Part shown: piece after piece, positions 14,526 to 17,746 of the stretch | Layout of the letters: each line of letters starts with the position of its first letter | How positions within the stretch are numbered: position 1 is the stretch's first letter | Source of the DNA: a virus | Taxonomy: Duplodnaviria; Caudoviricetes | Virus record (IMG/VR): IMGVR_UViG_3300033414_000001 | Location: 14,919-78,918 of that record | Length of the DNA: 64,000 nucleotides | Direction: 5' to 3' (one strand) | Notes under the pieces: generated by a model | Told to the model about the DNA's origin: nothing | The model's database searches: none | What the model saw: only the letters and a program-made list of their open reading frames with translations | Program-made: the position numbers and the translations under genes

Positions 14526-15431
14526 ATGGCAGAAGAGACCGCACCAGCAGCAGGAGGAGCCGCAGAAGCAGCAGCGGCGCAACGTGCCGGCGCGCAGGAC
14601 AATGGCGACGGGACGGTGACGCTCGCAAACGGAAAGGTGCAGGTCCTTTCCAGCGAGGCGTACAAGCGCATCAAGGAAGGAGCCAGAGCGCAGGGGCGCA
14701 AGGCGGCCCAGGCGGAGCTGGATGAGATCGCCAAGAGGTACGGGTTCGACTCAGCGGCCATAGCGCTGGCGTCGCTTCAAGCCAACGGCAACGGCAATGC
14801 TGCGCGGAACGTGCCAAGCAACGGCACCCAACGCCGAGACGATCGCCATCGCGAGGAGCGCCGAGACGATCGAGGCACTCGAAGCGGCGACGGAGAGCGA
14901 CGGGAAGCGGCGCCGGAGGCCCCTCGGCCGCCACGGCAAGGCGCCGACCGGAAATCGTGGGAGAGGTTCGAGCGTGCGCAGAAGCAATTCGAACGGGACC
15001 GCGACGCGTACCGGGAGCGTCTCAATCGAGCAACGGGCCGCTCGCGGGATCTACAGCGACAGCTCGACGCCCGCGAAGCCGAGATGGCTCTCCGCGAGAA
15101 CTTCGCCAAGGCGGGGGTGCAGGATCTCGACTACGTCGTCCACACGTTCAGTCGAGAGTTCAGCGGCAAGACCGAGGAGGAGCTCAAGGCGTTCGACGAG
15201 GCGAAGTGGATTGCCGATCTTCGCGCCAAGAAGCCGTACCTGTTCGGCGAGGTCGTCATCCCGGCCAACACCGGGGTGAACGGAGCGACTCCGCCTGCTC
15301 CGCAGCCCGGAGACGTGACTCGAACGATCGCCGCAGGCGAGCAGGTCGACGCGAGAAAGATGTCGTCGCAGCAGTTCGCACAGCACCTCAGAAGCAGAGG
15401 GATGAACCCGGACTCGATCCGAGTGGGGTAG
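14526..15431 (+). CDS. capsid scaffold protein
   Basis: Charged coiled coil, ...KPYLFG motif, directly upstream of the capsid gene. Confidence 0.8.
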   Translation: MAEETAPAAGGAAEAAAAQRAGAQDNGDGTVTLANGKVQVLSSEAYKRIKEGARAQGRKAAQAELDEIAKRYGFDSAAIALASLQANGNGNAARNVPSNGTQRRDDRHREERRDDRGTRSGDGERREAAPEAPRPPRQGADRKSWERFERAQKQFERDRDAYRERLNRATGRSRDLQRQLDAREAEMALRENFAKAGVQDLDYVVHTFSREFSGKTEEELKAFDEAKWIADLRAKKPYLFGEVVIPANTGVNGATPPAPQPGDVTRTIAAGEQVDARKMSSQQFAQHLRSRGMNPDSIRVG

Positions 15432-15512: not shown

Positions 15513-16907
15513 ATGGCCGATTTCAGTACCATTCTGCAAACGCCCCAGATCCGGGCGATCGTCCAGGAAAACATCCTGGAGCGCATGTTCCACGACGCGC
15601 TGTTCCCGAGACTGCTGTTCCGGGGCGAGGCGACGCCGGTCCTGTTCCCTGGCCACGTGGGCGACTCGATGGTCTTCACGGGACGGGGGCTCATCAAGCC
15701 GAAGACCGGCCCGCTGGTTCCCGGCACCGATCCGGTGCCCAGCGACTACCAGCGCGAGCAGTGGACGGCGACGATGCAGCTCTACGCCGACTCGATCGAC
15801 ACGAACATTCTCACGTCGATCTCTGCGATCGTCGACCTGTTCCTGGCCAATGCGGCGCAGATGGGACTGTCGGCCGGGCAGTCGCTCAACCGCGTGATCC
15901 GAAACCGCCTGTATGCCGCTGGCCTCAGCGGCAACACCGTGACCACCACGGCAAACGCGGGTCCTGCGTCGACTGCTCTGCCCGTGGCGCGCCTCAACGG
16001 GTTCACCAAGGCGCGCAACCCGAACCTGGCGGGTGGCTCCCCGGTGCAGTTTGCACCCGTGAGCAGCGCGAACCCGCTCGCAATCACGGTCGGGGCTGCA
16101 ACGGCCGCCGTGGTCATCGGGTTCACTCCTGCCGCGCCCGGCGATGAGGTCGGCCCAGGCACGCTGACGCTCCAGGCCGGCATCACCTGGGCCAATCGAG
16201 ATCGCGTCGTGGCTGCGGACGCCAGCGCGATCCAGCGCGTGGGCGGTGGCGCCACCATCGACGCGCTCACGACCGCGAACATCCTGACGTTCGCCGACAT
16301 CCGGTCGGTCGTGTCCAGGTTCCGGCAGAACAATGTCGACCCTCAGCCGGACAAGCGCTACCACCTGCACCTGTCGCCGAATGCCGAGGCCGAACTGTCG
16401 GCCGATGTCGAGTTCCGGCAGCTCAACACCGCCCTGCCGGACTACTACATGTACCGGGATTTCGCGATCGGCGAGATCCTGGGGTGTCTCATCTACCGCA
16501 ACTCCGAGTGCCCGATCGCGGACACCGTGAGCGGCGGCCCGACGGCATCCTACGATCCGCAGGATGCGTTCGCTGGCGAGCTGTTCGTGGGCGGCGTCCC
16601 GACCGGCGCGCCGGTCTACCACACGCTGCTCGTGGGTCAGGGCGCGATCTACGAGTACTACCAGGATCTCGATGCCCTGGTGACTGAGGCCGGCATCACC
16701 GGGCGAATCGGCCAGGCGAAGGTCACCAACAACGGCGTCGAGATCAACGTCGATCGGGTCCAGCTTGTTCTGCGCTCGCCGCTCGATCGGCTCCAGCACC
16801 TGGTCCCGGTGAGCTATCAGTTCGTCGGTGACTGGCCCACGCGCACCGACGCTACCACCGGCAGCGCCGCTCGGTTCAAGCGGATCGGCGTCATCGAGCA
16901 CGCCTAG
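15513..16907 (+). CDS. major capsid protein
   Basis: 464 aa after the scaffold, strong AGGAG RBS; HK97-like order of elements (E-loop EQWTATMQLYADS, YHLHLSP...L, GEILGC). Confidence 0.85.
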   Translation: MADFSTILQTPQIRAIVQENILERMFHDALFPRLLFRGEATPVLFPGHVGDSMVFTGRGLIKPKTGPLVPGTDPVPSDYQREQWTATMQLYADSIDTNILTSISAIVDLFLANAAQMGLSAGQSLNRVIRNRLYAAGLSGNTVTTTANAGPASTALPVARLNGFTKARNPNLAGGSPVQFAPVSSANPLAITVGAATAAVVIGFTPAAPGDEVGPGTLTLQAGITWANRDRVVAADASAIQRVGGGATIDALTTANILTFADIRSVVSRFRQNNVDPQPDKRYHLHLSPNAEAELSADVEFRQLNTALPDYYMYRDFAIGEILGCLIYRNSECPIADTVSGGPTASYDPQDAFAGELFVGGVPTGAPVYHTLLVGQGAIYEYYQDLDALVTEAGITGRIGQAKVTNNGVEINVDRVQLVLRSPLDRLQHLVPVSYQFVGDWPTRTDATTGSAARFKRIGVIEHA

Positions 16908-17420
16908 CCCGACGATGCGGTCGTGGCTGCACAGACTTGGGGAAACGTCGATCGGCAGATCGGCGTTTCCCCTCCCCGCGCCCGCCTCGTGCGGGCTCAC
17001 CGGAGATCTTCGGATCTCCATTCCAGGGACGCACGATCGACAGATCGTTTCCGGTCTGGCTGACACCGTGACCGGGCATCCCACCGACCCCTGCCTATCT
17101 CGCGATGGGCGTGTCAGGGGGTCGGCTCATGTCGGAGCTGACGGGATCTTGCGGTCCCGATGCGCTCCGCTTACCGGCGAGCAACCCACGGCTCTTGCCG
17201 TTGAACCGCTCGCCATCAATGGTGGCCTCGCCTCGCGGCAGCATTGCGCTGCCATTCACGGCGATGACATCCCGGACGGCTTGGTTCTTCGGACCCATCG
17301 CGCCATCCACGTAGGGCTCGTCGCATCGGAAGCATGCACACCCCACGGCGGGGGCTTCCGCCGGTTAACGTGCGCGCATCTCGCGACGAGCCCTGCCACC
17401 GCTTTCTGACTCACTACGAA
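16908..17420 (+). ncRNA. large structured ncRNA candidate (~510 nt)
   Basis: No coupled ORF. Many helices, two C(UUCG)G and two GNRA tetraloops, an 11-bp long-range stem (17314-24/17383-93) and a closing stem (17221-26/17395-400). Confidence 0.6.
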
Positions 17421-17428
17421 GGAGCGTC

Positions 17429-17746
17429 ATGGCCGGACCAGTCTCCCCGCAGCAGTCAGCCCAGAAGAAGCGCGATCCGCTGGCGGCGGCAATCGTCTCG
17501 CAGCCCGGGCAGCAGGAGCTTGCTCCTCCGACGCCGGTCAGGGCCGCGGAACCGGATCTGATCCCGCCCGCTCCGCCGGCCTGCCTGCCCGAAGAGAGGC
17601 GGTTCCGGGTCCGGTCCTCCAAGATCGTCAACGTCGGCGGCTCCATGACGACACTCGCCGCGGGTTCCATCGTCAGCGCCAGAACCCATGACCTGGCAGC
17701 CCTCAGGACCCATGGAGTCGAGCTGGAACCCGAGCAGAGCAACTAG
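17429..17746 (+). CDS. small head-associated protein
   Basis: AAGGAG RBS; Pro-rich N-terminus plus a small beta domain; typical post-capsid position. Confidence 0.7.
   Translation: MAGPVSPQQSAQKKRDPLAAAIVSQPGQQELAPPTPVRAAEPDLIPPAPPACLPEERRFRVRSSKIVNVGGSMTTLAAGSIVSARTHDLAALRTHGVELEPEQSN

Follow-up and report, generated by a model that had tools for sequence, protein, structure and literature searches.

A family of large, pseudoknotted structured RNAs downstream of the major head gene in uncultured tailed phages

Large structured RNAs are carried by some phages, and two of them, ROOL and GOLLD, are usually found near tRNA genes. A smaller element, the Mu-gpT-DE motif, reportedly described by Weinberg et al. 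in 2017, is said to be a conserved RNA motif downstream of the major head genes of Mu-like phages. Late operons also contain terminators or attenuators made of simple hairpins of 20 to 40 nt, located at the operon head or past the major capsid gene, such as T-phi, which follows gene 10 of phage T7, and the lambda PR'-6S RNA-tR' arrangement with its Q-mediated antitermination. Among regulatory leaders, T-box RNAs share the core UGGNACCGCG. ROOL and GOLLD are both Rfam families, and cryo-EM structures of them are available (bioRxiv 10.1101/2024.12.08.627333). The leader pseudoknot of T4 gene 32, cited in PMC10690425, is a classical H-type mRNA pseudoknot.

The window analyzed here, a stretch of 64,000 nt, comes from an IMG/VR virus record of 78.9 kb that is complete, carries direct terminal repeats and has a G+C content of approximately 66%. 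Its major head gene is separated from the gene for a 105-aa protein, p105, by 521 nt (16908-17428), as measured for a gap that an original prediction had put at about 520 nt and had proposed to encode a novel, structured noncoding RNA. That proposal was borne out, as the region encodes a conserved and covarying plus-strand RNA, is not a protein gene and belongs to no Rfam family. The segment 16908-17428 is a member of an uncatalogued family of large (~450 to 520 nt) structured RNAs in uncultured tailed phages, and we consider it almost certain that a new, conserved, pseudoknotted plus-strand RNA family exists. The features of the locus are the following.

14526-15431: scaffold-like gene, which precedes the major head gene.
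15513 to 16907, plus strand: major head (capsid) protein gene (phrog_1357 major head protein, E = 1.8e-15), the upstream neighbor of the RNA.
16939 to 16972, plus strand: H1, a 15-bp hairpin (16939/16964), an inverted repeat just 3' of the capsid stop codon.
16980-96, plus strand: H2, with 97% of alignment cells paired and 5 pairs changed on both sides (5 sequences).
17002-19, plus strand: H3, a hairpin with a cUUCGg loop, with 83% of cells paired and 3 pairs changed on both sides (5 sequences).
17026 to 17082, plus strand: H4 domain, with closing stem 17026-29 with 17079-82, H4a at 17033-48, and H4b at 17051-56 with 17070-75.
17060-66 with 17111-17, plus strand: pseudoknot PK1, CTGACAC with GTGTCAG, joining the H4b loop to the H5 bulge.
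17084 to 17125, plus strand: H5, with outer stem 17084-93 with 17115-25, inner hairpin 17094-17109 and a 3' bulge; two helices of the five-sequence structure.
17133 to 17169, plus strand: H6, with stem 17133-38 with 17164-69 and inner hairpin 17143-58, from the minimum free energy (MFE) fold and an alignment of 26 5' regions.
17176 to 17214, plus strand: module 2, with outer stem 17176-82 with 17208-14.
17221 to 17400, plus strand: 3' domain, with closing helix Ha (17221-26 with 17395-17400) enclosing the three arms Hb, Hc and Hd.
17228-64, plus strand: Hb arm.
17274-17308, plus strand: Hc arm with a cUUCGg hairpin (17287-92).
17313-24 with 17383-94, plus strand: Hd, a long arm that contains He (17328-39 with 17370-81) and Hf.
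17341 to 17363, plus strand: Hf hairpin (stem 17346-51 with 17358-63, loop 17352-57) and pseudoknot PK2.
17401 to 17428, plus strand: U-rich tract (UUUCU, 17403-07), then the Shine-Dalgarno sequence AGGAG of p105 (17420-24).
17429 to 17746, plus strand: p105 gene (105 aa), whose own Shine-Dalgarno sequence and ATG lie 3' of the RNA.

The RNA resembles ROOL and GOLLD in being phage-borne and several hundred nt long, in its many helices and pseudoknots, and in having a conserved core and a variable periphery. It differs in that no ROOL or GOLLD model matched it at any threshold, that it is fixed between the capsid gene and a small head gene, and that it ends in a U-tract beside a ribosome-binding site. 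With Mu-gpT-DE it shares a conserved RNA structure placed immediately 3' of the major head gene of a phage, but that motif is small, is in Rfam, where it gave no match here, and goes with another capsid family and another architecture.

The order of elements recalls riboswitches and T-box leaders, in which a large conserved fold is followed by a helix and a U-tract and then by the ribosome-binding site of the gene under control. In module 2, the 3' half, UGGAACCGC, also resembles the T-box core given above, but here the UGG is base paired rather than placed in a bulge and there is no specifier-type stem I. In contrast to both leader types, this RNA has no Rfam match and no known ligand, and the gene that would be regulated lies in the virion region. 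PK2 is comparable to the H-type pseudoknot of T4 gene 32, with a stem 1 of 3 to 4 bp, a loop 1 of 1 to 3 nt, a stem 2 of 6 bp, no loop 2 and a loop 3 of 2 to 4 nt; however, it caps a long arm of a much larger RNA instead of forming a free-standing leader element. As with T7 T-phi and lambda tR', the setting is a late structural operon, after the most abundant product, with a GC-rich helix and a U-rich tract upstream of the next genes, and the expected effect would be on the ratio of capsid to downstream protein. In our case, though, the helix is a pseudoknot-capped arm of ~85 nt inside a fold of ~500 nt, and termination is putative.

Known classes were searched for with Rfam 15, which takes in ROOL, GOLLD, group I and II introns, tmRNA, RNase P, T-box, riboswitches, small ribozymes and Mu-gpT-DE. 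The whole window gave no match at the gathering score, and eight homologous loci gave none at E values up to 1; a permissive search of 16700-17600 returned nothing beyond miRNA and sRNA entries at chance level (E > 1). The original prediction had been unable to match the RNA to ROOL, GOLLD or phi29 pRNA, and the Rfam scan of the window and the eight loci agrees with it; its comparison with these three RNAs thus finds no match among the models and holds by analogy only. ARAGORN detected no tRNA or tmRNA in the window, which sets the RNA apart from tmRNA and tRNA-like molecules. A group I intron was considered and rejected, since the capsid protein ends at the same conserved C terminus in relatives with and without the element and p105 has its own translation signals.

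The helices listed in the original prediction were all present at their positions. Both cUUCGg loops are real, and the perfect stem described as 11 bp long, now Hd, is in fact a perfect 12-bp stem. In contrast, the GGCA loop had been wrongly called a GNRA loop: GGCA and GACA are GNNA loops because their third base is C, a pyrimidine. A folding z-score, proposed at the time as a check, placed the plus strand far beyond shuffled controls, with an MFE of -265.9 kcal/mol versus -220.3 ± 7.5 kcal/mol for 100 dinucleotide shuffles (z = -6.06). The z-score of the minus strand was -6.52. Both strands fold about equally well, as is to be expected of a set of inverted repeats.

Approximately 110 distinct related loci were fetched for comparison. 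The nearest, L003, L008/L210, L212 and L005, have capsid proteins 65 to 67% identical to that of the window, and the same gap, ~470 to 520 nt long, can be aligned with the window over its whole length. Covariation was assessed by counts with shuffle and slide controls, not by R-scape, and two of the alignments were fitted to a model structure. For the five full-length sequences we used a structure-blind MAFFT alignment and an RNAalifold structure of 117 pairs, from which 11 doubtful long-range pairs had been dropped. In that structure 88.7% of cells were paired, versus 73.3% with shuffled partners and at most 45.5% when the partners were slid, and 61 of the 117 pairs had changed on both sides. 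The helices of the H4 domain covary in this alignment.

The 3' domain was followed further with a covariance model, R1, and a second model, R2, built from the R1 hits. Together they gave plus-strand matches in 36 distinct loci, located 220 to 380 nt past the capsid stop codon or past an inserted gene. In a 16-sequence alignment of this domain (A7), 89.2% of cells pair, compared with 61.5% after shuffling, and 48 of 55 pairs show compensated change on both sides; these values lean towards structure because A7 was fitted to the model, a bias from which the MAFFT alignments are free. The most conserved motif of the family is module 2, which lies just 5' of the 3' domain and of which the window has a slightly divergent copy. 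Its outer stem encloses an internal loop rich in A residues, two C-G pairs and a C.U mismatch, which is conserved, as well as a stem-loop of 4 to 6 bp, which varies. In a structure-blind MAFFT alignment of 36 sequences (A10), 88.9% of its cells were paired, versus 65.3% after shuffling, and its covariation score was 0.547, versus 0.132 when shuffled and at most 0.145 when slid. Compensatory change thus went beyond both the shuffle and the slide controls, as it should in a structured RNA, and the covariation that had been named as a check on the prediction proved to be heavy across homologous regions of more than 40 uncultured phage contigs.

Two pseudoknots are part of this pattern. PK1, whose 5' strand lies in the 13-nt loop of H4b, had been noted in the original prediction as a possible competing or pseudoknotted pairing, and compensated variants of it were found in distant homologues when judged by eye: CUGACAC/GUGUCAG in the window corresponds to UGGCGU/ACGCCA, UGGUGUG/CACACCA and GGCGC/GCGCC in relatives. 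PK1 was not found, also by eye, in the L229-type subgroup. PK2 is formed by the first three bases of the Hf loop (GGG, 17352-54), which pair with CCC of the 5' internal loop within 17341-44. A perfect 3-nt complement is present in 32 of 33 non-redundant sequences, whereas shuffled internal loops give 13.2 ± 2.5 and at most 21 (2000 trials). Where the loop is other than GGG, the partner has changed to match in 13 of 14 sequences. Six compensated types occur (CCG/CGG, CUG/CAG, CGC/GCG, UCC/GGA, CCCA/UGGG and CGG/CCG), and even the close relatives L307 and L328 carry CGG/CCG and CCG/CGG, respectively. Both its geometry and its covarying pairing make PK2 an H-type pseudoknot.

Outside this core, peripheral hairpins come and go among members. 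H1 has a terminator-like position, but it is variable, relatives carry unrelated hairpins there, and the copy in the window has no U-tract. The inner hairpin of H6 has a conserved YUCGGUC-type loop in most relatives, and H6 is absent from the L229-type subgroup. A pairing between the G/U-rich linker after H5 and the AAACCC of module 2 was inconsistent across members and was dropped.

G-U and U-G pairs outnumber A-C and C-A pairs by 44 to 13, and therefore the folded molecule is the plus-strand RNA, in the sense of the capsid message. This bears on the possibility that the conserved entity is a DNA-level element, i.e., a packaging site, a replication origin or cruciform-forming repeats. The similar folding of both strands (z of -6.1 and -6.5) would fit such an element, as it would any set of inverted repeats. 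Besides the bias in wobble pairs, however, two pseudoknots and conserved single-stranded loops would be meaningless in duplex DNA, and the direct terminal repeats of the genome lie elsewhere. The real matches of R1 and R2 are all on the plus strand, the sole minus-strand match being a weak one on the near-palindromic Hd arm. We consequently regard a DNA-level function as extremely improbable.

The region might also be a protein-coding gene, given that a plus-strand open reading frame (ORF) of 164 aa (16915-17409) spans the gap. One frame stays open for 116 to 164 codons in all five close sequences (the window, L003, L008, L212 and L005) and starts 8 to 17 nt after the capsid stop codon; in L005 the gene caller placed a 116-aa gene there, and in three relatives an AGGAG overlaps the capsid stop codon. 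In the lower-GC L212 and L005, the other two frames contain 6 to 9 stop codons. Against a coding function, the GC contents of the three codon positions are flat in the ORF of the window (0.68/0.61/0.69, versus 0.65/0.48/0.87 in the capsid gene), and in L003 the third-position value is 0.79 in the ORF versus 0.99 in the capsid gene. Mismatches between L003 and L210 are spread evenly over the codon phases of the ORF (32/34/26) as opposed to those of the capsid gene (33/23/91), and the same two loci differ by indels of 1, 1, 3, 1 and 1 nt in the ORF region and by none in the capsid gene. The ORF translations share 35 to 38% amino-acid identity at 64 to 68% DNA identity, about as much as untranslated DNA gives. 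Across the best-conserved nucleotide block, the frame of the window differs from that of L003 and L008, and therefore the conservation of the DNA there does not extend to the "protein". The comparable "ORFs" of more distant relatives bear no relation to one another, and their GC contents are just as flat.

Translations of the plus- and minus-strand ORFs had no match in Pfam or PHROG. The minus-strand ORF at 17095-17346, which had been put forward as a possible conserved protein that would overturn the RNA prediction, showed no conserved translation (best E value, 0.42). An extension of the capsid protein by frameshifting or read-through was rejected because the frame of the ORF relative to that of the capsid gene is 0, +1 or +2 among relatives. 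The region thus has neither a codon-phase bias nor a restriction of indels to multiples of three nor a conserved translation, and a protein-coding gene on either strand is highly unlikely. The open frame has no explanation besides chance and GC-rich helices, and it yields false gene calls, such as that in L005.

The distribution of the RNA was examined with an exact-pattern scan for module 2, which matched 44 IMG/VR contigs. In each of the 41 contigs for which the fetched DNA included a homologue of this capsid, the match followed it on the same strand at a distance of 170 to 850 nt; these capsid proteins are 41 to 65% identical over near full-length matches. The other three comprise two contigs that start too close to the match to show a capsid gene and one apparent chance match (L300). 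Wherever the fetched DNA extends far enough, the match is also upstream of the gene for a 136-aa protein. Using a loose core pattern on genome contigs, we obtained more than 120 matches, in GC-rich genomes, and judged them to be chance from the looseness of the pattern.

Among 106 distinct loci of the capsid family for which 700 nt or more of sequence past the capsid gene was available, 38 or 39 contain the RNA. Contigs with the RNA come from samples of freshwater sediment, wetland and soil. It is present in 33 of the 58 loci whose capsid protein is at least 55% identical to that of the window and in 5 of the 48 below that value. Approximately 60% of related phages have no detectable copy, and the RNA is therefore dispensable. 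In relatives without it, p105 comes directly after the capsid gene. In one of these, L002, whose capsid protein is 59% identical, the translation of L002:5840-6100, between the capsid gene and the 136-aa gene, contains an HNH endonuclease-like motif; because of this stretch, the region downstream of the capsid gene may be a preferred site for inserts that are optional or mobile.

A gene of the p105 family follows the RNA at 10 to 50 nt in nearly every locus checked. Two loci, L216 and L295, have another gene between the capsid gene and the RNA, and there the RNA still adjoins p105. Since this adjacency holds despite the inserted gene, the RNA is tied more tightly to p105 than to the capsid gene. 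The insert in L216 (3906-4526) is a 206-aa gene with Cys-rich motifs and coding-type GC contents at the three codon positions (0.64/0.49/0.79). L293 and L295-type contigs have ~750 to 790 nt from the capsid gene to the RNA.

The p105 protein has a disordered N-terminal half rich in P and A and a conserved small C-terminal beta domain of ~50 aa, for which the structure model has pLDDT values above 90 (residues 60 to 100). Some homologues start with a basic N terminus of the MGRRRKE type; the P/A-rich linker and the beta domain are common to all. Sequence searches of p105 against Pfam, PHROG and PDB gave no match, nor did a fold search with its predicted model. Two conserved genes, coding for 136 and 178 aa, lie downstream of p105. 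Homologues of the capsid protein number more than 800 in metagenomes. Among cultured phages the best capsid match, at only 30% identity, is Streptomyces phage Kromp, and no DNA match was found in cultured phages. A search for prophages and hosts yielded four MAG contigs, each of them binned to a different phylum.

At the 3' end, every member has a U-rich stretch 0 to 3 nt past the closing helix of the 3' domain. At least 4 T residues in the 8 nt right after that helix occur in 78% of 37 members, compared with 7.9% of background positions. The U-tract is followed by the Shine-Dalgarno sequence and the start codon of the p105-family gene, 10 to 50 nt on. In L307 and L328 the order is the long arm, 3 nt, U8 and the Shine-Dalgarno sequence. 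The tract of the window is weak, and the helix next to it, Ha, closes a multi-branch domain rather than a simple hairpin; a simple terminator scan called nothing in the window. Canonical terminator-like hairpins with U-tracts are present 8 to 35 nt after the capsid stop codon, upstream of the RNA core, in L214 (3918-3949) and L258 (2407-2435). A sigma-70-only scan of the window and three relatives predicted no sigma-70-like promoter before the RNA.

In this layout, a large conserved fold, a GC-rich arm and a U-tract precede the ribosome-binding site of the following gene, in a late operon whose first product is required in great excess. It leads us to favor, tentatively, a cis-acting attenuator or leader that would gate read-through from the capsid gene to p105 and beyond. 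The RNA would be read from the plus strand within the late transcript of the head genes and would adopt a three-part fold, consisting of a 5' domain in which PK1 joins H4 and H5, the central internal-loop module and the 3' multi-branch domain with its PK2-capped arm. Closing of the 3' domain may allow the GC-rich arm and the U-tract to stop or pause RNA polymerase, or may else limit initiation at p105. The abundant capsid message would thereby be largely uncoupled from the low-copy head-completion and tail genes. The conserved pseudoknots and loops may bind a factor or ligand, or set the folding kinetics, and so tune read-through. An earlier suggestion that the RNA sets capsid stoichiometry would agree with an attenuator; the accompanying ideas of virion association and of a packaging role are hypothetical. 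The weak U-tract beside a multi-branch closing helix and the lack of a called canonical terminator or promoter in the window argue against it, as does the absence of a detectable copy from ~60% of related phages. Besides, a plain attenuator needs neither ~500 nt nor two pseudoknots nor invariant loops, which points to ligand or protein binding, catalysis or assembly; its size and its invariant unpaired nucleotides suggest that it does more than form a passive barrier.

These same properties bring the RNA closer to large functional RNAs than to regulatory hairpins. It is possible, albeit somewhat doubtful, that it is a stable, autonomous large RNA acting in trans, made from the late transcript or from its own promoter, in which case its position before p105 would reflect co-expression only. 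It could then be part of a ribonucleoprotein, a self-assembling ornate RNA like ROOL and GOLLD, or a decoy against host defense. A variable periphery around a retained core is in keeping with such a role, the terminator-like hairpins between the capsid stop codon and the core in some relatives would fit a separate transcription unit, and the U-tract past the last helix could be its own 3' end. The sigma-70 scan provided no promoter-like site for it, however, the ROOL and GOLLD models do not match, and the tight, conserved spacing to the ribosome-binding site of p105 would sooner be expected of a cis element. Alternatively, the late message could be processed between the capsid gene and p105 by a catalytic, for instance self-cleaving, RNA, so that a structured 3' end would protect the capsid mRNA. 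Catalysis would account for invariant unpaired nucleotides in a pseudoknotted core (the A before Hf, the G after Hf and the A-rich loops of module 2), which are typical of active sites, and processing would suit a position between genes whose products are needed in very different amounts. Such a ribozyme is improbable, as no similarity to the ribozymes of Rfam 15 was detected even at permissive thresholds and no conserved candidate cleavage site was identified.

To our knowledge, large RNAs with a complex conserved tertiary architecture are rare, and nearly all of the solved classes that we know of are ribozymes, riboswitches or ribonucleoprotein cores. The family described here has a size of ~500 nt, at least two covarying pseudoknots, invariant loops, more than 40 members and a fixed place in the head module, and is absent from Rfam. 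Its fold makes clear structural predictions, which compensatory mutants of PK1, PK2, Ha and Hd would address. It is conceivable, if rather unlikely, that it represents a new class of large functional RNA, confined to a widespread clade of uncultured phages from soil, sediment and freshwater: either a switch that responds to a ligand or protein, is far beyond the size of known riboswitches and would time the hand-over from capsid to head-completion and tail proteins, or a new ribozyme or self-assembling RNA. If the RNA acts in trans, it would be a new member of the small set of unexplained large phage RNAs; if it is an attenuator that controls read-through past the capsid gene, it would be an uncommonly intricate way to set unequal protein amounts from one late operon.
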